Of a DNA stretch of 44,263 nt, positions 13,830 to 38,997 are shown piece after piece. This DNA is from a phage: the NCBI GenBank assembly GCA_029038705.1, contig GCA_029038705.1_4346.1; one strand, 5' to 3'. The notes under the pieces are model-generated. The model saw only the letters and a list, made by a program, of their open reading frames with translations, made no database searches and was not told the origin of the DNA. Made by a program: the position numbers and the translations under genes. Numbering within the stretch: position 1 is the first letter of the stretch; each line of letters starts with the position of its first letter.

Positions 13830-13915
13830 AAATCTACTGGTTCTATGAAGAAGACTGTCGAATCTGTCCGCGCTGCGGGATTGAGCACACGAAACGTGAG
13901 GGGTGCGTATTATGA
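13826..13915 (+). CDS. Hypothetical tiny Cys-rich protein
   Basis: 29 aa (MKIYWFYEEDCRICPRCGIEHTKREGCVL); ATGA-coupled. Confidence 0.25.
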   Translation: MKIYWFYEEDCRICPRCGIEHTKREGCVL

Positions 13916-14409
13916 AAGCACCAAGTGACGATATAAAAGATTTTCTGTCATACGACCCGGATACCGGGATATTTAAATGGGTCAAGCACAGATGCCAGAC
14001 CGCGAAACCCGGAGATGTTGTTACATACAAGGACCGTAAAGGGTACATATTGTTAGGATGGAGTAGGGTGTATTACCGCGCACACAGGCTGGCGTGGTGG
14101 TGGGTGTACGGAGAGATGCCAACTAAGCAAATAGACCATATTAACGGCATACGGGACGATAACCGGATTTGTAACCTACGGCTTGCGGATGAATTTCAAC
14201 AGAACCATAACCGCAAGACCCCAGTTACGAACACCAGCGGCGTGAAAGGGGTTAACTGGAGTAAGCCTCATAATGCTTGGTGTGCTCGAGTTGCTTTTAA
14301 AGGTACACGCTATCAGATTGGGTATTTCCAGAACCTAAATGAAGCAGAGGAATCCCTGAGAGAATTTAGGGTAAAACTGCACGGAGAGTTTTGCAACCAT
14401 GGCGACTAA
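13912..14409 (+). CDS. HNH homing endonuclease with AP2-like DNA-binding domain
   Basis: HRLAWWWVYGEMP...IDHINGIRDDNRICNLRL...NHN is the HNH motif; SGVKGVNWSKPHNAWCARVAFKGTRYQIGYF is AP2-like. Track start 13903 is GTG; ATG at 13912 has GAGGGG upstream. Confidence 0.8.
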   Translation: MKAPSDDIKDFLSYDPDTGIFKWVKHRCQTAKPGDVVTYKDRKGYILLGWSRVYYRAHRLAWWWVYGEMPTKQIDHINGIRDDNRICNLRLADEFQQNHNRKTPVTNTSGVKGVNWSKPHNAWCARVAFKGTRYQIGYFQNLNEAEESLREFRVKLHGEFCNHGD

Positions 14410-18969: not shown

Positions 18970-21525
18970 TTAATTAAAACCATTGCTGAATCCGTCGGAG
19001 AAACCGCTGCCGTATGGCGCGACGCCGTCGTATTTATAGAATCCGTCGTCATAGTTGTAGCCTGTAATCTTGACCGTGCGGTCGTCGCCGGGGTCGATTG
19101 AAGAAACAACTATCTTCTGAGCATTATGCCTTGCTTCGTTGCCGAATGAAAACTCAGTTTTTAGTGCGCTATTCCCCGTGTAGATTGCTTCTTCCGGCGC
19201 GGAGAGCATAATCACTTCGCGGTCGTGGCTTCCTTTGATAACGGAGATACTCTGTACAGAGCCATCGCGCTTCTTGAGGATGATGGAGTGGTCATCACCC
19301 GGAGTAAACGCAACCGGCTGTGACAGTGTCAGCGTAAGCCCATTAACGGCAGCAACATAGCCGTCCTGTGGCGCAATACGCGAGCCTTTAACTACGCTGA
19401 TTACACCGCCTGGGGTAGCGAGCGCACCTTCTTCGGTAGCTTCAAACTCTACGACAACTTTACTTAACGCATTGCGCTGGTAGCGACGCCACGCCAGCCA
19501 GTACGCTTGCTGATAGTTGCGCACGCCCTTCGATTCGTATTCCTCGGTGTTTGCCCCTAGTTCTTCCGGGATATAAATAGTTTCCTGTACGTTCGTATCC
19601 GGGTCGATGTATGAGAACGACAGGCTATCGTAGGTTGTCGAATCGTTGAACGTGCGGGTCCATTTCTCAGTACCGGTAGTTTTGCTGCGGTGGGTGAACA
19701 CCATTTCAGGCCCCGCGACAGGACGGTCGAATCGCAGCATAATATCCGCACCTTTACGGTACGCAGTACAGAAAACGGCTTCCGCTATGGTCTGGACGAT
19801 GTCCTGCATGGTTGTGTCATAGTCGTCGAACGTGTAGCAGAATTGCCCTGCTAATTCACTTCCGAAATAGGACTCAATTTCTTCCTGCACAGCAAGTAAC
19901 TTGTCCATGTTTGCCGTTGTCAGTTCCAGATTGCCTACTGCGGGGTCGCGCGCCAGTCGAATTAGAGATTGTACGGCTTGCGTGTTCGGTGTCATTACTG
20001 TATCGAATACCCCATTGCCGAGGTATTTGTAGCACATCTCGGTCGCAATCATGCGCAGTTCAGGGTTATCGATACTGGCGGCCCGCGGCGTCTGTTTACG
20101 GGCGCAATGTACGGTAGTTCGGTTGCCGTAGTGTGGAGTGGTGTCCAGAGACTGCCCATACAGGTTAATGAATGTTATCTCGTCGCTTACCGTTCCGGCA
20201 TAGTCCTTATCAAAATTCGTTATACGGCGCATACGGGCGCGGAAACGAGACGCGGTCGGCAACTGCCCGTAGATAGACGTACCAACGTAATCCGTGCTAT
20301 TACCAGTAATCGTAGCCTGTACCGTGTAAATATCGCTCAACGGGTTACGCTGAGAGTCAATCATCTGGTACTGGAGTTCCACCGTTACGCTGGTGCGGTT
20401 ATAGCCGCCGTCGTATTTGTAGATGCCGTTCTGCCCGGCAACGTTCGCAAGCACCCGGTCAACTTCTCCGCGCACCATGTAATACCAGTCTGTCAGGGAT
20501 ACGTCATAGGTGTCGCTCGGGCCGATAAACGTATCTGAACGCTCTGTTAGGGCGTACGTCTGCCCGCTGGTCAACGCCGCCCAGTTAGACGCACCGTTTA
20601 CCGCTAATCTTACTTCGAAGTCATCAACGTATAAAACCTCAAACGAGCCGTTCAGGTTAGTGACATCAGCAACGTCAAAGTTGCTCAGCACCGCGACATC
20701 ACCGGCGCTAAGAAACTCAGAAAAAGCAGAGTCGCCCGACGGGTCATAGATGTAGCCGGTGGTCGAAGTACGTTTGGCGGTTCCACCGGAGCTTGGGTTA
20801 GCCCCAATGTCGTTTGGCGCTTTGAGCACAATACCGTCAACGTCGTCATTGGAGTACGTCACATAGAGCTTCTGATCAATGACGTCGCCGATTTGTACCT
20901 GCGGCGATGTGGTGTTGTTCGGTGACGTATACGGCGCGTACACGGCAACAGAGGAACCTGTGATGTCGCTTATCAGGGTGTCGCCTTCCGTGACGCCATC
21001 GGCCTCAATATACAGATGTCCGCGCCCGGCGTCGTAGTACGAATACTCCAGCAAAGCACCAGTGGAGTTGAACGCTTTATACGTCTGCATAAGGTCGTTA
21101 GGGATTGTCTGCACAGTCCCGCAGATGTCATAAGAGCGCTCGTAAGGGCGTGGTTTGTTTGAGCGGTCCGTGAGGCTGTTATTTGGCGATGTTGTCTGGT
21201 TGTTAGTCGCCGTATAGTTGGCGTTTGCGGACATGTTCAGGCCAAACAACTTAGCGATTGGCTTAAGGATAAAACCAAATACCTTACTAACTGCACCAAG
21301 CGCCCCGCTACCCGCACCCTCAATAATATGGTACACGGCGTCTTCGTCTTTAAGCGCTTCGAAGTCGTCTGTAACATCAGTATCATCGCCAATCTCGCCG
21401 AGGTAGACGCGCACAGGCACACCGTCCGGAATACGGCTAACAACAAACTCCATCGGCATCCCGACGTGTTTTGTACGGTCGAAAGCGCCATCAGCGTTTC
21501 GCGAGTAGTGCAGGATTATCGCCAA
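18970..21525 (-). CDS. Tail tip / central tail fibre protein (host-specificity J-like)
   Basis: 851 aa; position distal to tape measure and minor tail genes. Function assigned by size and position. Confidence 0.6.
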   Translation of the reverse strand: MAIILHYSRNADGAFDRTKHVGMPMEFVVSRIPDGVPVRVYLGEIGDDTDVTDDFEALKDEDAVYHIIEGAGSGALGAVSKVFGFILKPIAKLFGLNMSANANYTATNNQTTSPNNSLTDRSNKPRPYERSYDICGTVQTIPNDLMQTYKAFNSTGALLEYSYYDAGRGHLYIEADGVTEGDTLISDITGSSVAVYAPYTSPNNTTSPQVQIGDVIDQKLYVTYSNDDVDGIVLKAPNDIGANPSSGGTAKRTSTTGYIYDPSGDSAFSEFLSAGDVAVLSNFDVADVTNLNGSFEVLYVDDFEVRLAVNGASNWAALTSGQTYALTERSDTFIGPSDTYDVSLTDWYYMVRGEVDRVLANVAGQNGIYKYDGGYNRTSVTVELQYQMIDSQRNPLSDIYTVQATITGNSTDYVGTSIYGQLPTASRFRARMRRITNFDKDYAGTVSDEITFINLYGQSLDTTPHYGNRTTVHCARKQTPRAASIDNPELRMIATEMCYKYLGNGVFDTVMTPNTQAVQSLIRLARDPAVGNLELTTANMDKLLAVQEEIESYFGSELAGQFCYTFDDYDTTMQDIVQTIAEAVFCTAYRKGADIMLRFDRPVAGPEMVFTHRSKTTGTEKWTRTFNDSTTYDSLSFSYIDPDTNVQETIYIPEELGANTEEYESKGVRNYQQAYWLAWRRYQRNALSKVVVEFEATEEGALATPGGVISVVKGSRIAPQDGYVAAVNGLTLTLSQPVAFTPGDDHSIILKKRDGSVQSISVIKGSHDREVIMLSAPEEAIYTGNSALKTEFSFGNEARHNAQKIVVSSIDPGDDRTVKITGYNYDDGFYKYDGVAPYGSGFSDGFSNGFN

Positions 21526-21881
21526 AATTCAATCTCCGTGTACGTGTCTCTGAGGTCCGCCAGCCTGTCAAGCCGTACCTGGCGGGATGCAAGCTCGCAA
21601 TGACTCACCATCCCGTCGAAGTAAACTCCCGCATGCCACACGATACGACCCCCGCGGCGATAACCCATAAGCACCGCGCAGAAGTTTTCAGGCTTATCAA
21701 TTTTTGTAAGCCCCTTCGTGTCACGGCGGCCTTCGTCAAACGCTTCGTTAATTGCCGTTGGGCTTGTAACGTCGAACGCAGGGGTTTCTAACCCGGCATC
21801 CGCGCGGACAATGCGCACGTGATGCCAGCAATTGCGTTTGCGAAAGTCGTAAGGTATGCCCGTGTAGTCGTTAATATTCAT
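21516..21881 (-). CDS. Tail assembly protein, possible NlpC/P60-type (gpK-like)
   Basis: 121 aa with candidate Cys/His residues (NCWHHV, WHAGVY); positioned as lambda K. Confidence 0.4.
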   Translation of the reverse strand: MNINDYTGIPYDFRKRNCWHHVRIVRADAGLETPAFDVTSPTAINEAFDEGRRDTKGLTKIDKPENFCAVLMGYRRGGRIVWHAGVYFDGMVSHCELASRQVRLDRLADLRDTYTEIEFWR

Positions 21882-22393
21882 GTGGTCAACAGGCCGCGTA
21901 ATAACGGTATCTCTTTAGGTGTCATCAGTATACCAGTGCTTCGTTGGTTCAGCATAGGTGTACCGACATCTGCGGAAAACTCGCCTTTCTCCTGATTGAT
22001 GGCCTGTAACTCGTACATGACAGGGCCGTCCGCAGGATAAGACAGGTCGGTGCCGACGTAACGGCGGAATACAAACTTCGGCAACTCGGTGTTACTCATC
22101 GGGATTTTATCCATCTCATCATCAAGTTGATTGAGAATATCCGGTAGTGTAAACGTCGTCGTCTGGTCCATATCGCTGTTGTTAGCGGCCCCGGACGCCT
22201 CCATCGGGGTGGGTTCGAATGTGATAGTTTCGCCGGTTTCCAGTGTCGCCGTAAGTTCCTGTAGCCCACGAACAAGATAGTACGTCTTTGACAACAACGG
22301 GTGGCTGATTTGCAACGTGATGTAGTCTATCTCGCCGTCGGGATTTGATGCCAACTTACGGCGATAGGCAGCTTCTACTGATTCCTGACTCAT
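21878..22393 (-). CDS. Minor tail protein
   Basis: 171 aa; between the distal tail protein and K-like gene. Confidence 0.45.
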   Translation of the reverse strand: MSQESVEAAYRRKLASNPDGEIDYITLQISHPLLSKTYYLVRGLQELTATLETGETITFEPTPMEASGAANNSDMDQTTTFTLPDILNQLDDEMDKIPMSNTELPKFVFRRYVGTDLSYPADGPVMYELQAINQEKGEFSADVGTPMLNQRSTGILMTPKEIPLLRGLLTT

Positions 22394-22396
22394 AAG

Positions 22397-23797
22397 TTAG
22401 CCGTCCACATTAAAATCAATACGAGTGATATATTTACTACCCCACGCAGAATCGGCCTGAGGGATAGTCGCGTAATCATCTACAGCCTGAACGTTTATCA
22501 CGGAGCCGTCGGAATAGGTGATGTCGATACTTGTCGCGCCGTTCATTACTACTTTTGCCGATGGCGCTGGGCGTGTTACAGGAGACGCCGACGTAATTAT
22601 TGGTGATGTTGTATTTTGGTTTACCTCTACAGTAGCCGCGGATAATTTAATCCCTGAAACGCCATCCCCCGTAAAGGCTCCGGTAACTCCGTCTGAATAT
22701 ATCCATGCGTCCATCCGTATGCTCATTGTTTTATCTTCTGTCGCGGTGATCGTCTCCGATATTCGGAACCACCCTCCGCCTACGTCGGTTACATCTGTAC
22801 CGCCTGGGCCGGAATAAATGCTACCATCCCGCAAATCAACAACTGCCGAGCCTAATACTGTAGGAAGTTCTCGCACGTACATCCGTATGAAATTGTATCC
22901 GTTTGCTTTTGCGAAGAAACTAAAAGTAACCATGTCGCCAACACCAACGCTAACATCTACAGTCTGGTTTATTAGGTGGTTACCGCTTGCGGCGGTAGCA
23001 GTTACGTCGTACGTGCCAGCGGCTGTTAAAACACCTGTTTCAGATACTGATACACTCACCAAACCTTTGTTCCAGTTTGACGAAGAGAAATTGCTTGAAT
23101 ATAGGAATCTGTTAGTTACTGATACCTCTGGTGGCACGCGCCCGGCGGCAACCCCGTCAATAAACGTAAGAGGCCATTCATTGGCGGCGGACTGTACAAG
23201 ATTACCATTGCGGTTGATGTAATAAACCTGTGGCCCCTCATACACAATGCGGCTATCAAGAGTCGACGCCAGAAGGTTAATCGGCGGATACCCGGCGGGG
23301 CCTTCATTGCTCCAGATGCGAGGGAACGTCGTCTCATAGTTCGCGTATATTTTCAGGAAACTACCCAGACAATCCCCGTAACAGCCGTACAAATCCGGAA
23401 GATTGTTAATCAGGCACTGGTTCTCAAGGTCCTGGAACGGCGATTTCTCGGCGGTTGCTGTGAAGGTAATTGTCCAGTTAATCCCGTCTTCGGTGGACTC
23501 GGCGATAGTGGACGTAATGGTTACCTGATAATCTTCGATGCCCATGCCGAAGTCGTGCGCCATCCAGAAACTTGACGCACCGCCGTCTACTTTTTCGAGG
23601 AACGACAGAAACGCCTGTCGCCCCATTGCGGATGTAATCAGGGTTACGCTCACCGGGAACACGTCGTAATACGTGTCGCGCCCCTGACGTACACCGCCAC
23701 CAGCTAAATCAACGCTCCAGACGTTGTTACGTCTGGTCATCGAGTAGCCTTTCGATACAATTGGCTTAAGGCTACGTGGGAAATATAAGTCGCTCAT
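22397..23797 (-). CDS. Minor/distal tail protein with C-terminal extension
   Basis: 466 aa immediately downstream of the tape measure protein. Confidence 0.5.
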   Translation of the reverse strand: MSDLYFPRSLKPIVSKGYSMTRRNNVWSVDLAGGGVRQGRDTYYDVFPVSVTLITSAMGRQAFLSFLEKVDGGASSFWMAHDFGMGIEDYQVTITSTIAESTEDGINWTITFTATAEKSPFQDLENQCLINNLPDLYGCYGDCLGSFLKIYANYETTFPRIWSNEGPAGYPPINLLASTLDSRIVYEGPQVYYINRNGNLVQSAANEWPLTFIDGVAAGRVPPEVSVTNRFLYSSNFSSSNWNKGLVSVSVSETGVLTAAGTYDVTATAASGNHLINQTVDVSVGVGDMVTFSFFAKANGYNFIRMYVRELPTVLGSAVVDLRDGSIYSGPGGTDVTDVGGGWFRISETITATEDKTMSIRMDAWIYSDGVTGAFTGDGVSGIKLSAATVEVNQNTTSPIITSASPVTRPAPSAKVVMNGATSIDITYSDGSVINVQAVDDYATIPQADSAWGSKYITRIDFNVDG

Positions 23798-25815
23798 TAT
23801 TTGAACCCCGGCGCGTTTCTTGTGGCCTTGCGAGCCTTGCTAATCTTACTGTTGCTGTTCTGCAAAGACGCGGCAACCTGTTCTTCAATGATGATACGCA
23901 AACGGCCCTCATCATCTTGCTCAGTGGATACGTTGCCGATTTGAGAACTCGTGTTGTTTACGATAGTAACATTAGATGGGCCACTATTTCCGCTATTATT
24001 ACCGTTTAACTGCTGCCGTGTTTGACTTGCATTGGTCGCCCTGCCAGAACCCGCCATCTTGATAATCTCAGGGCCGCGTTCACCAACCAGGTAACTACCG
24101 CCAGCGTTCATTTGCCCGCCTTGCTCACGCGCGCCGCTAATCTTGGCGATGTTCGCCACCCCCGCCGCGACAGCCAGACCCGCGGCAACCGGAGCGAGTG
24201 CCGGGCCGACAATTGGAATAGCAGCAGTTGATTTATAGGCTTCGATAGCAGCCGTGTAAGTGGCAATAGTCGCTTGCGTTATGGCGAACGCTTTGTACGC
24301 AGCGGACGTCTCCCCCAGTGCGGATTTAGCATCCGCTGCCATGCTGCCGAATGCGTCGGCGGTGGCGTTGGCTTGTGCAATATTGCTCTGTTCGTTCAGG
24401 TTACGCACTGCATTAGCGTATTCTTCTTCGCTGATTAGTTTCTGTTTAAGGAAATCGTCCAGTTGCTTAAGTTTGGCGTCATTCTGCCGTTGGATTTCCT
24501 CGAACTCTGTGCCACCAAGCGCCTGTAGTTTCTCCAGATATGCATCAGCATTGTTATACAGCGCATCTCGTTGTGCCTGAAACTCCGCCATGATGTCACT
24601 TTTCGACTTCTCGTAGTCAGCGTCGCTTACGAGTTGCTTGTCGTGGAACTCCTGCAATTTAGCCAGTTTCTGTTTCTCTTTGGCGTCTATCCGTTCTAAC
24701 TCTGTTCCGGTGTTTGTGTCTATTTGAGCTATAAACTGGTCTGCGGCTTTCTGTGCGCTTTCCTGCGCGCGAGCGTCGGCGCGGGCTTGAGCATCTGCTC
24801 GTTTCTTAGCTGCGGCAGCGATACGATTCTGCCTGTCTATTTCCTTCTGTGCCCTGTCCGCCTTATCCTTTTCATACGTCTTCTCAGATTGCTCTACCCC
24901 TTTTCGCTCGGCTGCGCGGGTCTTTTCCTCCACACCAAGGTAGTTAAGTTCATTTCGCAGTTTATTTATTTCCATCTGCGCTTCTGGCGTTTTGGCGTTT
25001 ATGCCGTCCAGGTAGGCGACCAGCCCTTCTCGAGCTCCAGGAACCCCAGCTGCGATTGCTTTCTGAGCAACTTCAATACTGCGTAACTCTTTGGCGGTCA
25101 ACCCCGCCGCTTCCGCAGCGGATTCGTACTGGAAAGCCACGGCCCCGGCAGCGTCCCCGCCTTGGGCTATCTGTGATGCGGCAAGGTTGGTGGTCAACTT
25201 CTGAAACAGAGATTGGGCTTTTGTTACCTTATCAATAGCTTCAACAATCTTATCTGCGGTGGAGTTAGCCTGTATGGCGGTTGCCTCTAGTGCCTTATTA
25301 AGAAATGCCATCTTCTCCGCTGTTGTTGCCCCGACAGCGTCCAGTTTTTCCAGTGCGTCATTCATGTCATACACACCGGGTGTGGCCTCATTAAGAGCGT
25401 CATCAAGGAACTTAGTAGCTTCCTCCAGTTGTTTAGCGGTATCCGTTGAGTTACTCAAAGACGCGTACAGCGCGCCGCCGATTACGGTGGCGATAGTCAA
25501 TACCGTGCCCGCAATTGGATTGAATGCGGACACTAACTGACTACCTTGTTGCGTGAAAGCCGTGAGGGCGGACTGCCCCCCTTGGATTTGTACGATAAAG
25601 TCCTGTACCTGATACCCAGCATTACCTATTGACGCCCGCATCGCGTTCATCTTCGGGGTTGCCGCGGAGGTGGTGTCCGTTAGTTTCTTTGTGCTGGAAT
25701 CCGCTTTCCCAGCGGAACTACTAAGGTTATCTAACTGCTTTGCTGCTTGCTCCGCTCCAGTTGCCTGGACTCGCACCATTAAACTCGCGGTATCAGCCAT
25801 TATAATCGTCCTCAT
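23797..25815 (-). CDS. Tail tape measure protein
   Basis: 672 aa; long Ala/Gln/Lys/Glu-rich coiled-coil core, C-terminal hydrophobic/Gly-rich segment (IVGPALAPVAAGLAVAAG...GERGPE). Confidence 0.8.
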   Translation of the reverse strand: MRTIIMADTASLMVRVQATGAEQAAKQLDNLSSSAGKADSSTKKLTDTTSAATPKMNAMRASIGNAGYQVQDFIVQIQGGQSALTAFTQQGSQLVSAFNPIAGTVLTIATVIGGALYASLSNSTDTAKQLEEATKFLDDALNEATPGVYDMNDALEKLDAVGATTAEKMAFLNKALEATAIQANSTADKIVEAIDKVTKAQSLFQKLTTNLAASQIAQGGDAAGAVAFQYESAAEAAGLTAKELRSIEVAQKAIAAGVPGAREGLVAYLDGINAKTPEAQMEINKLRNELNYLGVEEKTRAAERKGVEQSEKTYEKDKADRAQKEIDRQNRIAAAAKKRADAQARADARAQESAQKAADQFIAQIDTNTGTELERIDAKEKQKLAKLQEFHDKQLVSDADYEKSKSDIMAEFQAQRDALYNNADAYLEKLQALGGTEFEEIQRQNDAKLKQLDDFLKQKLISEEEYANAVRNLNEQSNIAQANATADAFGSMAADAKSALGETSAAYKAFAITQATIATYTAAIEAYKSTAAIPIVGPALAPVAAGLAVAAGVANIAKISGAREQGGQMNAGGSYLVGERGPEIIKMAGSGRATNASQTRQQLNGNNSGNSGPSNVTIVNNTSSQIGNVSTEQDDEGRLRIIIEEQVAASLQNSNSKISKARKATRNAPGFK

Positions 25816-26062
25816 TACGGCCTTCGAACAGTGCGTCTAGGCCCATTATTAAGTCTACCTCAAGCAACGAGAACGGCTGTTTATGCAACTCTGCGTACGC
25901 TGTAAGGTGGTGATATTGGAGCATTTCCCTTGGTATTAGCACATTATTGCGGCTTACAAACTTCAATGCGTAGTATTTATCCATTATTTTCATCATATCG
26001 CTCGGGCATTCCGGCGGGGTTTCCTCAGGCTCCTTCGGTACAGGTAACCCCATAGCCGCCAT
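25793..26062 (-). CDS. Tail assembly chaperone, T-like downstream ORF
   Basis: 89 aa between the G-like chaperone and the tape measure. Its frame is open about 39 codons upstream of the ATG and is -1 relative to the preceding ORF. Confidence 0.4.
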   Translation of the reverse strand: MAAMGLPVPKEPEETPPECPSDMMKIMDKYYALKFVSRNNVLIPREMLQYHHLTAYAELHKQPFSLLEVDLIMGLDALFEGRNEDDYNG

Positions 26063-26151
26063 AGCGGCCTTGTGCCCGTCGGCGATGGAGTCGAACTCAC
26101 GTCTCCTTTGCCGTATAACCCAGCGATACCTCGCATATTCGTAAAGCGCTT

Positions 26152-26568
26152 CTACTTTACAGATAAAGCTTTGCGGCTCTCAGCATGGTGTTGAGCGACA
26201 GCCCCTCCCAACCCTTTATACTCCTTCAACAGCTTGACCAACGCTTTCTTAGTGAACTTCTCCTCGAAGGACCACCCTACAACAACAACGGCAGCAAGTG
26301 CATCGTTAAGTTTAGCCAATTCACTGTTTAATTCCGTGTTATAGCGCGCCCAGTCCCCTTTCTCGCGGCACTCCGCGTCGAGCGGTTTCAGGCGGTCAAG
26401 GATGTCGCGGTAAGCGGAGATAAAATCCTTAGCTGCGGCGATTGAGTCGTCGCAGTCAGGCCCCATCACCTGCAACCACTCCCCTGAGTCACTGCCGTCC
26501 GGTAGCAGGATAGGCATCTTAGTTCCCGCAGCGTGGCGGGACGCGAAATAAAAATCAGAAAGTTTCAT
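26152..26568 (-). CDS. Tail assembly chaperone (gpG-like)
   Basis: 138 aa, acidic; canonical position between the major tail and tape measure genes. Confidence 0.5.
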   Translation of the reverse strand: MKLSDFYFASRHAAGTKMPILLPDGSDSGEWLQVMGPDCDDSIAAAKDFISAYRDILDRLKPLDAECREKGDWARYNTELNSELAKLNDALAAVVVVGWSFEEKFTKKALVKLLKEYKGLGGAVAQHHAESRKALSVK

Positions 26569-26677
26569 TCTTTAATCCTTTGGTTAAGAGGTTGTTGGTT
26601 AAAGAGAAATGCACCAGGCGGTAACCAACCGCTTTTCGTGCGCGACACTAGGTGCAAAATTATTCTAACACACTACT

Positions 26678-26706
26678 TGCACACCCCAATATAATAGGGT
26701 ACTATT
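26678..26706 (+). promoter_or_regulatory. Sigma70-like promoter (TTGCAC-N17-TACTAT) with AATAG-N4-CTATT element, driving the plus-strand cassette
   Basis: TTGCACACCCCAATATAATAGGGTACTAT; same architecture as the minus-strand early promoters at 2431 and 4040. Confidence 0.55.
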
Positions 26707-26745
26707 CACTTACACCAACGTTATTAACTTAAATAAGGAATTAAA

Positions 26746-27072
26746 ATGCGTAAATTAATCATAGCCATGGGTCTTATTTCTTTTTGCGCGGTAGGGTCCC
26801 AGTGTGAGCAAGTATATAGTGAAACCCCTTTAGTAACTTCCGGGGTGCTTGATTCAGCCCCTCCGTCTGCCGTTAGTGCGTTTAAAACCGCTGCTATTCG
26901 CGAATGTAATGCTGCCGTGCGCGCTGGCGGGTCTGGCCTTGGTCTTGAATTGATGACATCCCTTGTTGTTGAGTCTGTAGATGTTAACAGCCCCACTTTC
27001 AGCAGCCTACTGTTAGCCACTCGTTTGCAAATGGTTACAACCGGATGGTCAATAGGCGCAGAAAGTAAATAG
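26746..27072 (+). CDS. Hypothetical small secreted protein (N-terminal signal peptide)
   Basis: 108 aa; MRKLIIAMGLISFCAVGSQC signal-like start (no canonical lipobox); AAGGAA RBS. The antisense ORF 26724..27020 is judged spurious. Confidence 0.45.
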   Translation: MRKLIIAMGLISFCAVGSQCEQVYSETPLVTSGVLDSAPPSAVSAFKTAAIRECNAAVRAGGSGLGLELMTSLVVESVDVNSPTFSSLLLATRLQMVTTGWSIGAESK

Positions 27073-27137
27073 TTGCCTTTATTTAAAGGAATGCACTGTG
27101 GTTAAATAGGACAAATCCTAAACACGAGGAAATAGGC

Positions 27138-28292
27138 ATGGCCCAGAAGAAAATAACCGACGAACAGTTACAGGAAGAATTGAACGCTGGGATGAAGAAT
27201 ATCGACATTGCTCGTAAATACGGCATCTCAGACCGCGTTATTCGTATCCGTAAAGCGAAACTAGCGAAGAAAGGCGTAGGCCACGGGCGTGACGTTAGCC
27301 ACCTTGTGCCGGACGGCTACAAGATTAAGGGTACATCGTCTCTGGTTGATGAGTTAGGCAACACTAAACTGCAATGGGTTAAGACCGACACCGATGCGGA
27401 ACGTCAGGTCGAGTTAATGAAAGCCGTTGTGGACGAGATGAAAAAAGATTTACCCAAGTATAAGCCAGTCACTTTGGCCAAAAATGGGACAGATGACGAC
27501 TTATTAAATCTTTACACAATAACAGACCATCACATAGGGATGTTGGCGTGTCAAGAAGAAGGCGGGGATGATTACGACACCACAATCGCGGAATCTCTCG
27601 CGGTTGACTGGTTCAACAGTGCGGTTTGTATGAGTCCACAGAGTGGTGAATGTATCATTAACTTCTTAGGGGACCAAATGCACTACGACGGCATGAAGGC
27701 AATGACCCCTATGAGCGGTCATATTCTTTCAGCGGATAGTCGCCTGTTTAAAATGATACGCACGGCCATTAAGGTTATCAAGCTGGCTGTCTCACTGTGC
27801 TTGCGAAAACACAAGAAGGTTAAACTTCTTATCTGTGAAGGTAACCACGACCTTAGTTCTTCTCTGTGGCTCCGGGAGATGTTCTACGAGGTATACACAA
27901 ATGAGCCTCGCGTCGAGGTTAACCGGGAGGTGTCACCGTATTATGCGTACAAGTTCGGGGATTGTATGATTTCAGCACATCACGGGCATTGTTCTAACTT
28001 TGCTAAGGTAGAGCAGGCTATAATCGGTAAGTACCGGGAGATGTACGGGCGGTGTAAGTTCACATATGTCCATACGGGGCACCTCCATCACAGGGCGGTT
28101 AAAGAGACTAATCTGCTAATTGTTGAGCAACACCAGACATTAGCGGCTAAAGATGAGTATTCTAGTAAGGGCGGCTATTATTCAGGTAGAAGCGCAAATG
28201 TGATTACATACCACAAACGTTACGGGGAGGTGTCCCGCATAAGTATACCTGTCGAAATGCTGCGAGACATAAACCCAAAATCGACATACTAA
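27138..28292 (+). CDS. HTH domain fused to a calcineurin-like metallophosphoesterase
   Basis: 384 aa. N-terminal NIDIARKYGISDRVIRIRKAKL (HTH-like). Phosphoesterase motifs in canonical order: TDHHIG, GDQMHYDG, EGNHD, HHGH, HTGHLHH. Confidence 0.65.
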   Translation: MAQKKITDEQLQEELNAGMKNIDIARKYGISDRVIRIRKAKLAKKGVGHGRDVSHLVPDGYKIKGTSSLVDELGNTKLQWVKTDTDAERQVELMKAVVDEMKKDLPKYKPVTLAKNGTDDDLLNLYTITDHHIGMLACQEEGGDDYDTTIAESLAVDWFNSAVCMSPQSGECIINFLGDQMHYDGMKAMTPMSGHILSADSRLFKMIRTAIKVIKLAVSLCLRKHKKVKLLICEGNHDLSSSLWLREMFYEVYTNEPRVEVNREVSPYYAYKFGDCMISAHHGHCSNFAKVEQAIIGKYREMYGRCKFTYVHTGHLHHRAVKETNLLIVEQHQTLAAKDEYSSKGGYYSGRSANVITYHKRYGEVSRISIPVEMLRDINPKSTY

Positions 28293-28307
28293 AATATAGG
28301 TGAAAGT

Positions 28308-28808
28308 ATGGATTGGAGTGAGGTTTTTAGCTACAAAAATGGCGTCCTATACTGGAAAGTCAAATCATGTCGCCGTAACGATGTGAATATAGGTGATGTG
28401 GCCGGGAGTTTGTGTAAAAACGGCTATTGGTATGTCATGTTTGGTAACCGTAAGTTTAAAAGGTCGAGGGTGGTGTATGAGATGTTCTCAGGTAAGATTC
28501 CAAAAGGATTTGTCATAGACCATACTAACCATGATACCTGTGACGACAGAATTGAAAACCTGTCATGCAAATCTAGAAGGGACAACATGGTTAACGTGAA
28601 AAGGCGCAAAGATAATACCTCTGGAGTTACGGGTGTGGCGCGGAAAGGAAAAACTAAGTGGAGAGCTTATGCCGTTGTCAACGGTAAGCAGATTAGTAAA
28701 ACATTTGACAGAATAGAGGACGCTTTCGCTGAAAGAATTTACATGTCTGTGGCTAATAGGTTTCACATAAATCATGGACTGACAACATTCAACAACGGTT
28801 ATAAATAG
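28308..28808 (+). CDS. HNH homing endonuclease with AP2-like domain (paralogue of 13912..14409)
   Basis: GFVIDHTNHDTCDDRIENL...(HNH) and SGVTGVARKGKTKWRAYAVVNGKQISKTF (AP2-like). Confidence 0.8.
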   Translation: MDWSEVFSYKNGVLYWKVKSCRRNDVNIGDVAGSLCKNGYWYVMFGNRKFKRSRVVYEMFSGKIPKGFVIDHTNHDTCDDRIENLSCKSRRDNMVNVKRRKDNTSGVTGVARKGKTKWRAYAVVNGKQISKTFDRIEDAFAERIYMSVANRFHINHGLTTFNNGYK

Positions 28809-28817
28809 GGTGTAGAG

Positions 28818-29111
28818 ATGACTTCAAAATACAACCGCACAATGACAAACACTCACGGCAGCACCATGACAGTAGACGTTTATGATGTGCTCCGTGCTTT
28901 CGATATCCGTGACCCGGCGCTACAGCATGCGTTAAAGAAGTTATTGTGCATGGGCTTGCGCGGACACAAGGACACCGGAACCGACTTAGCAGAAGCAATT
29001 GAAAGTCTGGAGAAGTTACGGGAATACCGAAGCAATATTGATGAGTTAAAATATTATGAAAACAATATATGTAATCCGAGTATACGACGAAGAATGGGAC
29101 GAGTGGGTTGA
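28818..29111 (+). CDS. Hypothetical protein
   Basis: 97 aa ORF. An overlapping alternative 53 aa ORF (29056..29217) exists; the true 3' end is uncertain. Confidence 0.4.
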   Translation: MTSKYNRTMTNTHGSTMTVDVYDVLRAFDIRDPALQHALKKLLCMGLRGHKDTGTDLAEAIESLEKLREYRSNIDELKYYENNICNPSIRRRMGRVG

Positions 29112-29213
29112 TATTTATGCCGTTAGTAGTAAGGAAGAGGCCTCTAAAGAAATGACAGAACGAAGGGACCGAGGCCAGTTAACTAACTTCTACGAAATGC
29201 CGTTCAAAAGTGA

Positions 29214-29248
29214 GTAAGAAAAGGCCCCTTTCGGGGCCTTAGTTTTAT
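29214..29248. terminator. Bidirectional terminator between the plus-strand cassette and the major tail gene
   Basis: AAGGCCCC-TTTC-GGGGCCTT with T-rich flanks on both strands. Confidence 0.6.
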
Positions 29249-37544: not shown

Positions 37545-37647
37545 AAAAATAATATCTCAGGGAATTTTTTCTTATTGCGGTGCGATGTCTTGCTGTGGTA
37601 CATGTATATACACAATCTTTATACTAGAAGAAGCGGAGGGTATTTTA

Positions 37648-38997
37648 ATGGGGTCCAGACGTTTAACTGAAGAAGATGTAAACCTGAGACTGGCGTCACG
37701 GGGTATAGTAGTAATTGAGTATGCAGGCCACTCTAAACTTAAGTCTAAATTCCGCTGCCGTAGTGGCCATGTGTGGGAGACAAAGGCCAATACCGTCCTA
37801 AACGGTCATGGTTGCCCCCAATGCTACGCTGCGGAAAAACGGGCGAAAGTAACAGAGTGGCCTAATGGGGTTGAATGCCTTAATTACGCAGGTGCTGTAA
37901 GTGGGAAATCAACGTTCAGATGTAAATGCGGGTTCGTCTGGTCCGCTACCGGCAGCGACATTTTAAGGGGTAAAAGTCATTGCCCGAATTGCAGCACTAA
38001 CAGAAAAAGGCTCGAGATCGGAGAAATAGAGGAAAGGTTACGCGGCACTGGTTTTGAACTGGTGTCTTATTCAGGGGATATCTGCCGTGCGCCATCGACA
38101 CTGAGGTGTCAAAAAGGCCATGAATGGGCCTCTACGCTTGGTAACATTTTTCAGGGTAGAGGGTGCCCGCGGTGCGCGTCGTTCGGGCGTAGTAAAGTGG
38201 AGGATGAAGTCTGTGAATTTCTCGATAGCATGGGGGTGGAATATCATCGGAATGATAGAAGTCTTATCCACCCAAGAGAGATAGATATTTTAATACCGCA
38301 ACATAATCTGGCGATAGAAATAAACGGCCTGTACTGGCACAGTGAAGCTGCCGGGAAGGGGAGAAAGTATCACATGGAGAAAAGAGTCGCCGTTGAGGAA
38401 AGAGGGTTCAGGCTCCTGTCAATAAGGGATGAGCTATGGCTGCATAAAAAAGAAATAATAAAGAAAATAATCGGCCATTCCGTCGGCGTCTCTTCTTTGC
38501 GAGTTTTCGCCCGCAAATGCCATGTAAAAGAGATTAACAAAATATGTGCAGAGCGTTTCCTGGAGGAGAACCACATTCAAGGATTCCGTAACTCGACGAG
38601 GTATATCAGCCTCGTTTATGAAGAAAAGATTGTTGCGGTAATGACGCTGACGTGTAGAAAAGGTGAATGGGAGCTTGTGCGGTACGCTACGTCGTGTTCG
38701 GTGGTAGGCGGGCTGTCGAAGCTATGGGCCTATGCCGTGCGCCGTTATAGCATCACCGACGGTTTTACCTACACTGACCGGGATTTATTTACCGGAGAAT
38801 CATACCTATCAGCGGGGTTTAAAAAGGCTTCTGTGAGATGTGGATTCCGCATCGTCGTAAACAATGCGACTAAAACAGAATCACGGCAAAAATGGAACAA
38901 AGCGCCAGAGGGGCTTACACAGTCGGAATGGTACGCTGCGGAAGGTGTATCCCGCATATGGGATAGCGGACAAGAGAAATTGGTATGGAATAAGTGA
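37648..38997 (+). CDS. Stand-alone nuclease with repeated zinc-ribbon modules and a PD-(D/E)XK-like core (homing-endonuclease-like)
   Basis: Three repeats of a C-x-x-G/C-H...CPxC module (CRSGHVWET..CPQC; CKCGFVWSA..CPNC; CQKGHEWAS..CPRC), then REIDILIP...AIEINGLYWHS. Start is probably the ATG at 37648 (GGAGGG RBS), not 37585. Confidence 0.55.
   Translation: MGSRRLTEEDVNLRLASRGIVVIEYAGHSKLKSKFRCRSGHVWETKANTVLNGHGCPQCYAAEKRAKVTEWPNGVECLNYAGAVSGKSTFRCKCGFVWSATGSDILRGKSHCPNCSTNRKRLEIGEIEERLRGTGFELVSYSGDICRAPSTLRCQKGHEWASTLGNIFQGRGCPRCASFGRSKVEDEVCEFLDSMGVEYHRNDRSLIHPREIDILIPQHNLAIEINGLYWHSEAAGKGRKYHMEKRVAVEERGFRLLSIRDELWLHKKEIIKKIIGHSVGVSSLRVFARKCHVKEINKICAERFLEENHIQGFRNSTRYISLVYEEKIVAVMTLTCRKGEWELVRYATSCSVVGGLSKLWAYAVRRYSITDGFTYTDRDLFTGESYLSAGFKKASVRCGFRIVVNNATKTESRQKWNKAPEGLTQSEWYAAEGVSRIWDSGQEKLVWNK

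Follow-up and report, generated by a model that had tools for sequence, protein, structure and literature searches.

A candidate superinfection exclusion gene with a predicted periplasmic product in an exchangeable slot of Guernseyvirinae phages

The window analysed here, a stretch of phage DNA of 44,263 nucleotides (nt) from NCBI GenBank assembly GCA_029038705.1 (contig GCA_029038705.1_4346.1), is the genome of a Guernseyvirinae-type siphophage with relatives in Kagunavirus and Jerseyvirus, and it matches 283 phage records in a megablast search, mostly from Salmonella and Escherichia. The subject of this work is the gene at 26746-27072 on the plus strand, an open reading frame (ORF) with an ATG start that encodes a precursor of 108 amino acids (aa). 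It will be called the slot gene, because it occupies a position in the tail operon which in most relatives holds a different gene instead, one that encodes a homologue of the Imm protein of phage T4. Superinfection exclusion is tentatively proposed as the most likely function of the slot protein, because the slot is reserved, as far as sequence comparison can tell, for small envelope-directed proteins, the commonest of which is homologous to Imm.

The slot gene is a real gene, and not an ORF that is open by chance. Its product, which starts with MRKLIIAMGLISFCAVGSQC as had been stated in an initial annotation, is a full-length member of PHROG 14165, a family without known function (expectation value, E, of 1.8e-33, with residues 1-108 aligned to profile positions 1-109 of 109). 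Full-length homologues with 50-60% identity were found by tblastn in 99 GenBank phage records, and metagenome contigs hold both closer homologues, which are 87-98% identical, and more distant ones, which are 21-43% identical. The sense frame is open in every homologue, the pairwise ratio of nonsynonymous to synonymous substitution rates (dN/dS) in the family is 0.10-0.41, which indicates purifying selection, and a Shine-Dalgarno sequence, AAGGA, can be read at 26735-26739 on the plus strand, 6 nt before the ATG.

Sequence comparison indicates that the family is a phage-restricted orphan, because every search for a relative outside it failed. There is no match to the family in Pfam, NCBIfam or PADLOC, and none at all in Pfam for eight family members at E up to 10; the S4lw homologue was among them, and the DUF3718 (PF12514) label that this homologue carries in GenBank was therefore rejected, no literature on DUF3718 having been found. 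The family profile found no match among PDB sequences at E up to 10, a scan of viral contigs with back-translated peptides gave no relative, and in BFVD the K1H homologue was recovered along with other small phage proteins that match weakly. Phmmer, run exhaustively over 1.84 billion cluster representatives, yielded 11 matches to the slot protein, three of which (P0006, P0011 and P0013) are large multi-stretch matches; P0006 and P0011, proteins of 3,692 and 4,377 aa, were rejected as relatives since their similarity is compositional and lies in adhesin-like repeats rich in T, V, D and S, a verdict that covers these two. Two profile iterations recovered only proteins of 108-124 aa, all on contigs of at most 45 kb; the family as a whole was found only on contigs within this limit, and all those inspected are phage-like and of Guernseyvirinae type.

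The exchange slot

The slot is defined on its left by a divergently oriented tail assembly chaperone gene (26152-26568, minus strand; PF08748, phrog_15027), which is its neighbour in every related locus inspected. On its right the slot gene heads a plus-strand cassette (26746-29217) that has minus-strand tail genes on both sides and splits the tail-tube and chaperone genes, as was anticipated in the initial annotation, where the ORF had been described as the first gene of a cassette. Of the 15 loci inspected that carry the family, 14 likewise have its gene in first position and divergent from the chaperone gene, among them those of the GenBank phages CR01, Esher4, S4lw, K1H and TS33 and the metagenome loci L007-L013; the exception is metagenome locus L006, in which an ORF of 65 aa comes before the family gene. 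No other cassette gene accompanies it in L007, and a single one does so in L010-L012 and in Hafnia phage TS33. The rest of the cassette is variable, and may include exonuclease, HNH, polynucleotide kinase/phosphatase, and Rha-like or anti-repressor-like genes.

The same first position is occupied in most relatives by a hydrophobic protein of 59-68 aa, for which XY1, BUCT823, SP-101, JD02, EnJE6, Ijeoma and Klebsiella phage D1 provide examples. This Imm-type protein matches PF14373 (Imm_superinfect) with 51.8-56.5 bits against a cutoff of 27.9 (XY1 and SP-101 included), and it shares 28% identity over 54 aa with T4 Imm, at a pairwise E of 9e-12; the slot protein of the window has no PF14373 match. 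The comparison with phage XY1 delimits an exchangeable single-gene module at 26736-27104 (plus strand), a stretch which in XY1 is replaced by the gene for the Imm homologue. Both flanks of the module are about 97% identical between the two phages (megablast returns two pieces with the slot gene missing between them), and in a pairwise alignment the identity stops near the Shine-Dalgarno sequence and returns 33 nt before the ATG of the exonuclease gene that follows.

The two families exchange in a nearly complementary manner across the phage group. In a tblastn census, with records sorted by the first word of the organism name, the chaperone gene is present in 500 records overall, the PHROG 14165 family in 99 and the Imm type in 371. 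For Escherichia the family (30 records) and the Imm type (73) sum exactly to the 103 records with the chaperone gene, as they do for Kagunavirus (3 and 8 of 11), and for Salmonella the corresponding counts are 64 and 263 of 357, which leaves about 30 records unaccounted for. The family and the Imm type were not found together in any locus checked or elsewhere in the window.

Rarer occupants of the slot were also seen. The gene for St162 gp53 (L020:1050-1334), which is found in five Salmonella records and is the sole cassette gene in St162, encodes a protein of 94 aa that has two cysteines and a leader of classical form (…LSAEA|TPC…); outside the leader, homology to the PHROG 14165 family is undetectable. 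In a distant Shewanella relative the slot holds an ORF of 60 aa with one long hydrophobic stretch that resembles a transmembrane segment. Phages G and L carry the PHROG 14165 family, and an earlier publication records, without interpreting it, a 'superinfection immunity' gene in phage P at a place where G and L differ (PMC5582158).

The sharing of one slot by these proteins admits an alternative explanation, the main rival to exclusion, which is possible though rather unlikely: the slot protein may be exported to serve some other function in the envelope, in which case the slot would be shared simply because it permits the insertion of small accessory genes. Candidate functions of this kind are the inhibition of a host periplasmic enzyme, the stabilisation of the envelope until programmed lysis, and the neutralisation of an envelope-acting host defence. 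The export features and the restriction of the family to phages fit such a function equally well, the protein has no similarity to known exclusion proteins, and the remainder of the cassette consists of variable, unrelated accessory genes (exonuclease, HNH, polynucleotide kinase and Rha-like), so that the locus evidently tolerates many cargos. A merely permissive site is, however, difficult to reconcile with the finding that the first position always holds a small membrane or exported protein in the loci inspected, with the near-complementary pattern of the two families, and with the homology of one of these families to a proven exclusion protein. The lysis genes also lie 25 kb away: the holin and endolysin genes are at 263-998, and a role of the slot gene in the lysis module was rejected on grounds of position.

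The cassette has the character of a moron in the sense of Hendrix and Juhala, in that it places extra genes between structural genes and deviates in G+C content (0.41-0.48, against 0.50-0.55 in the flanking tail genes). With regard to a promoter and terminator of its own, the slot gene has a promoter-like block, while the hairpin at 29221-29240 is held in common with the genes downstream.

The slot gene is also the fastest-diverging gene in its neighbourhood. Between the window and metagenome loci L008 and L009 the tape measure is 98-99% identical, the chaperones 97-99% and the slot protein 87-89%, and for Esher4 the corresponding values are 91%, 90-97% and 57%. The alleles of the slot and chaperone genes co-vary (Spearman 0.77), but this was set aside as a sign of a target in the tail, because adjacency and shared ancestry explain it. 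In one homologue (L008:4001-4327) the first 23 residues are identical to a leader of the K1H type while the mature domain is of the window type, and recombination within the gene is therefore indicated.

Export, the mature protein and the proposed point of action

Export of the slot protein through the Sec pathway, with processing by signal peptidase I, is strongly supported by the composition of its leader. The predicted signal peptide comprises residues 1-17 (MRKLIIAMGLISFCAVG; 26746-26796, plus strand), in which an n-region of MRK, with a charge of +2, is followed by LIIAMGLISFCAV, a hydrophobic core of 13 residues with a mean Kyte-Doolittle value of 2.68, and the predicted cleavage site for signal peptidase I is AVG|SQC, after G17. 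The leader thus combines a basic n-region, a hydrophobic region in the range of 10-15 residues, small residues at -3 and -1, and the absence of proline at +1. All 25 of the family members analysed have one or two basic N-terminal residues, a hydrophobic core and, a short way before the invariant first cysteine, a site with small residues at -3 and -1, so that the layout of a Sec signal peptide which the initial annotation had recognised in the window protein recurs, as a prediction of export, throughout the family. The site reads xxG|S(P/Q/T)C or SFA|HPC in the branch formed by Kagunavirus and Jerseyvirus, where it always lies three residues before the cysteine, and is of the AxA type in the distant branch, where it mostly lies 3-5 residues before it (AKA|TTC, AIA|GPVC, ASA|ETPC). 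The site three residues before the invariant cysteine is the only one common to the whole of the close branch. An alternative cleavage, VGS|QCE, is possible in the window protein only; in homologues of the SPC type, cleavage one residue later is ruled out because it would place proline at +1.

It is improbable that the hydrophobic segment instead remains uncleaved as a signal anchor, in which case the slot protein would be bitopic, spanning the inner membrane once and exposing its helical domain to the periplasm, and would act in a manner similar to Imm or HK97 gp15. This possibility draws on the shortness of the leader, at 17 residues, on the fact that its cleavage is a prediction, and on the membrane nature of the alternative slot occupants, but the allowed (-3,-1) sites are kept in register across the family and become classical AxA motifs in distant members, and a hydrophobic core of 13 residues is short for a stable transmembrane helix.

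The three cysteines reported in the initial annotation for the ORF of 108 aa are found at C14, C20 and C54. Because C14 lies within the hydrophobic core and C20 and C54 are invariant across the PHROG 14165 family, the first is assigned to the leader and the other two to the mature protein; in relatives C14 is replaced by A, T, Q, P or G. Neither ISF-C14 nor GSQ-C20 of the window protein fits the lipobox [LVI][ASTVI][GAS]-C. A distant branch of the family, which includes P0009, P0016-P0024 and L019:3001-3360 (Hafnia phage TS33), has a conserved leader of the form MKRIT…[LI]GC-SYVG, in which Cys17 completes a good lipobox; an AxA site comes next, and the two-cysteine domain after it. The members of this branch may be lipoproteins, unlike the window protein.

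The predicted mature periplasmic domain (26797-27069, plus strand) has about 91 aa, a mass of 9.3 kDa and a pI of 4.6, contains C20 and C54, and has a conserved C-terminal helix motif, ...SLLxATRLQMVxxGWxIGAE. An AlphaFold2 model built on ten family sequences, which has a mean predicted local distance difference test score (pLDDT) of 80.9 and a predicted template modelling score (pTM) of 0.72, is helical, with helices at residues 19-25, 28-31, 34-37, 40-63, 67-77 and 84-106; C20 belongs to the first short helix, C54 to the long central one. Residues 1-15 are unstructured in the model (pLDDT < 50) and the helices start from residue 19, which is consistent with export. There is no segment of transmembrane grade in the mature part (maximum KD19 1.13), and a C-terminal membrane anchor was rejected on this value; what is left after cleavage is predicted to be a soluble periplasmic protein.

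These features can be assembled into a mechanism. A conserved phage promoter would direct host RNA polymerase to the slot gene, which leads the cassette inserted into the tail operon, and the product would be exported by the Sec pathway and freed of its 17-residue leader by signal peptidase I, leaving in the periplasm a soluble, acidic helical bundle of about 91 aa, probably stapled by a disulfide between C20 and C54. The slot itself is a place at which Guernseyvirinae exchange the PHROG 14165 family, a homologue of T4 Imm and, rarely, another small exported protein with two cysteines. Exclusion would take place after adsorption, if the periplasmic protein interferes with the conduit formed by the tail tip and tape measure of an incoming related phage or, alternatively, with a periplasmic or inner-membrane step that this conduit requires, and the second genome would as a result be kept out of the cytoplasm. 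The choice of the tape-measure and tip conduit as the target is one that we infer; in the window the tape-measure gene lies at 23797-25815 and the tip genes at 18970-23797. T4 Imm, for its part, blocks the entry of superinfecting DNA (PMC11436027).

Action at the stage of DNA entry is more likely than action at the receptor, because a soluble periplasmic state is predicted for the protein, because this group of phages uses surface glycans and tailspikes (PMC11990801), because HK97 gp15, a moron in a tail operon, acts on the incoming tail (PMC3594210), and because T4 Spackle provides an instance in which a small, disulfide-bonded periplasmic bundle stops entry (PMC7677548). Exclusion through a block of adsorption, in which the slot protein would mask or alter a surface receptor in the way that Cor or the Llp lipoprotein does, is correspondingly judged very unlikely. 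A good lipobox ([LI]GC, then Ser) is present in ten distant metagenome members and in the homologue of Hafnia phage TS33, all of which could be membrane-tethered, but the window protein has none (Phe stands at -1 in SFC, where the cysteine, C14, is not conserved, and Gln at -1 in GSQC), it has no outer-membrane targeting feature, and a soluble periplasmic protein cannot reach the cell surface. The tailspikes of Guernseyvirinae, moreover, recognise glycans of the O-antigen or capsule, so that there is no outer-membrane protein to be plugged (PMC11990801), and a tailspike is encoded in the window. The initial annotation had suggested superinfection exclusion by the blocking of either a receptor or a DNA-injection step. 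The suggestion of exclusion gains circumstantial support from the occurrence of an Imm homologue at the same position, behind the same promoter and in mutual exclusion with the family, while receptor block is the weaker half of the suggestion.

Several points weigh against exclusion by the slot protein. The proposed role derives from positional association with Imm homologues, so that the argument from a shared slot is one of guilt by association, and the Imm-type proteins of Guernseyvirinae are themselves annotated by homology only. The slot protein resembles no characterised exclusion protein in sequence or in fold. Cleavage of the leader after G17 and a C20-C54 disulfide in the mature protein are predictions. 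The slot allele tracks the tape-measure allele loosely, as is evident from Esher4 (91% identity in the tape measure against 57% in the slot protein). In addition, no Pfam domain of a tail-borne peptidoglycan hydrolase was detected in the tape measure, tip and spike proteins, where a divergent one could be missed, and because no tail lysozyme domain was detected, a block of lysozyme of the Spackle type is unsupported.

A generalization of the proposal, which is more speculative than the assignment of the function itself, is that all Guernseyvirinae may have a one-gene 'exclusion slot' filled by interchangeable, unrelated envelope proteins, and that PHROG 14165 might then constitute a new class of periplasmic exclusion protein which disables the DNA-delivery conduit of glycan-dependent siphophages.

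Transcription, the antisense frame and the cassette

A putative promoter of the sigma-70 type lies upstream of the slot gene at 26677-26705 (plus strand), with a -35 element TTGCAC at 26677-26682, a spacer of 17 nt, and a -10 element TACTAT at 26700-26705. Both elements are invariant and in register in all 11 of the aligned Guernseyvirinae intergenic regions, the spacer sequence differs between Kagunavirus and Jerseyvirus, and the slot intergenic region is strongly conserved across genera, whichever gene comes next. A generic promoter scan missed this promoter because its -35 element matches at only three of six positions. A perfect TATAAT at 26690-26695 was rejected as the -10 element, since it falls between the two elements and Jerseyvirus does not preserve it. 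For the pattern TTGCRY-N17-TAYTAT, 0.06 occurrences would be expected in the window; there are three, and a block of about 45 nt, which includes the initially transcribed TCAYTTA, is common to the three copies. The copy at 4068-4040 (minus strand) stands at the main divergent control region, at the head of a series of small ORFs directed leftward, and the copy at 2459-2431 (minus strand) heads a series of ORFs that leads on to the holin and endolysin genes.

Because a copy of the promoter heads the leftward cluster of small genes, the slot gene is probably transcribed by the host polymerase together with that cluster, and the early promoter that the initial annotation had assumed is plausible, in so far as timing may be judged from promoter sequence. 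There is no terminator-like fold between the slot gene and the exonuclease gene (z -0.52), and the two are therefore probably co-transcribed.

On the other side of the same intergenic region, the minus strand at 26593-26658 matches Rfam family RF02996 (int-alpA RNA) over the full model, with 35.0 bits and an E of 2.4e-5 for 901 nt searched. The score falls just below the gathering score of 35.8, as do the scores of 35.0 in L008 and 34.2 in XY1, and at the gathering threshold there is no Rfam match in the window. RNAfold gives the same three-way shape for this element, and its inner hairpin shows a compensatory change from T-A to G-C between phages. The element would form the 5' leader of the chaperone and tape-measure operon. 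Immediately upstream of it, a possible extended -10 promoter, TGtTAGAAT, is directed leftward at 26662-26670 (minus strand), back-to-back with the slot gene promoter; its Jerseyvirus counterpart, read from the alignment, is TGcTATTCT.

An ORF of 98 aa with a GTG start lies antisense to the slot gene at 26724-27020 (minus strand), in the codon-aligned antisense frame, a frame that is often open by chance. The initial annotation had dismissed it as spurious, and the homologues agree: the antisense frame contains 1-4 stops in every homologue below about 60% identity (CR01, K1H, Esher4, S4lw, L006 and L007), while the sense frame stays open. The chance that the product does not come from the ORF at 26746-27072, whether because the antisense ORF is expressed instead or because no protein is made, is negligible, for although the window and its two closest relatives have no stop in the antisense frame along the length of the gene, this frame is interrupted in all of the more distant homologues, in which the sense frame remains open with dN/dS below 0.45, and the Shine-Dalgarno sequence and promoter are both on the sense strand.

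The slot gene is followed in the cassette, on the same strand, by a gene for a DNA repair exonuclease of the metallophosphoesterase type (27138-28292; phrog_704, E 1e-150), an HNH endonuclease gene (28308-28808; PF13392, E 6e-16; phrog_99), and two small ORFs (28818-29111 and 29056-29217). The first of these small ORFs matches phrog_2452, over the C-terminal third only, and thus resembles a remnant. A GC-rich bidirectional hairpin at 29221-29240 (both strands), with a fold energy of -17.7 kcal/mol and a z of -3.05, closes the cassette against the tail-tube gene. The HNH gene of the cassette is one of three HNH or homing endonuclease genes in the window, the others being at 13903-14409 and 37585-38997.

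The window is strongly mosaic around the slot. The region of the chaperone and tape-measure genes (23797-26568) is 91-97% identical only to Esher4 and at most 57% identical to other GenBank phages, and the exonuclease gene is 92-99.7% identical to XY1 and to Salmonella Jerseyviruses. The chaperone ORFs at 26152-26568 and 25793-26062 (minus strand) match PF08748 and PF23812, in this order, an arrangement which in K1H and Shewanella phage 3/49 is annotated as a joined, frameshifted product of the G/GT type.

Significance and comparison with known systems

If the proposed exclusion function is correct, then PHROG 14165 would add a new family to a kind of system that is already known, and the alternating slot would provide a useful organising principle for a therapeutically popular group of phages. 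Jerseyvirus and Kagunavirus rank with the phages that are most frequently isolated and put forward for therapy and biocontrol directed at Salmonella and E. coli. Were the first cassette gene to decide which relatives can co-infect, these widely used phages would be split into exclusion groups, and members of a cocktail that carry different slot alleles could interfere with one another. Few periplasmic exclusion proteins are understood, T4 Spackle being the model case, and an unrelated family that acts on siphophages for which no tail lysozyme is known would suggest a new point of vulnerability in the delivery of DNA across the periplasm. The slot also supplies a clean natural experiment in the comparison of the window with XY1, since these are near-identical phages with flanks that are 97% identical and differ only in the slot gene.

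Among the systems with which the slot gene can be compared, the exclusion lipoprotein Ltp of Streptococcus phage TP-J34 is extracytoplasmic and all-helical, and reportedly acts on the tape measure of incoming siphophages. It comes from a temperate phage of a Gram-positive host and has a repeat architecture. Its lipoprotein nature resembles the lipobox-bearing distant branch of PHROG 14165, and Ltp was absent among the PDB matches listed. Cor and T5 Llp are, like the slot protein, small exported phage proteins, and they cause exclusion as lipoproteins that plug FhuA (PMC3594210, PMC9586334); they differ in that the window protein lacks a lipobox and in that its phage group depends on glycans (PMC11990801).

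The best precedent for the location and logic of the slot gene is HK97 gp15, likened here by its description, which is an exclusion moron situated in a siphophage tail operon, by the chaperone and tape-measure genes, and which prevents DNA entry, with sensitivity set by the tail of the incoming phage (PMC3594210). The two differ in that gp15 is an uncleaved, YebO-like inner-membrane protein from a prophage, while the slot protein is predicted to be exported, its gene has its terminator in common with downstream genes, and no prophage or chromosomal copy of PHROG 14165 was found (contigs of at most 45 kb). T4 Imm and the other PF14373 proteins are comparable with respect to position, since they occupy the same promoter-proximal slot in most Guernseyvirinae and are likewise small and envelope-located, but they are hydrophobic membrane proteins of 59-68 aa, whereas the slot protein is predicted to be soluble.

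With respect to architecture the closest resemblance is to T4 Spackle, a periplasmic helical bundle of 75 aa with one disulfide-bonded pair of cysteines, which blocks entry (PMC7677548). The slot protein is likewise phage-encoded and all-helical in its model, with a cleavable signal peptide that is here a prediction, a mature length of about 91 aa and one invariant cysteine pair in its family; this is a resemblance and does not amount to family membership, since hhalign assigns a probability of 6% to homology with Spackle and aligns only 14 residues of the leader. The relation to Imm also differs, for in T4 Spackle is the partner of Imm, while in the present phages PHROG 14165 is the alternative to an Imm homologue in the slot. 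The slot protein is thus Spackle-like in architecture and probably in compartment, and by descent it belongs to PHROG 14165, outside the Spackle, Imm and Cor/Llp families.

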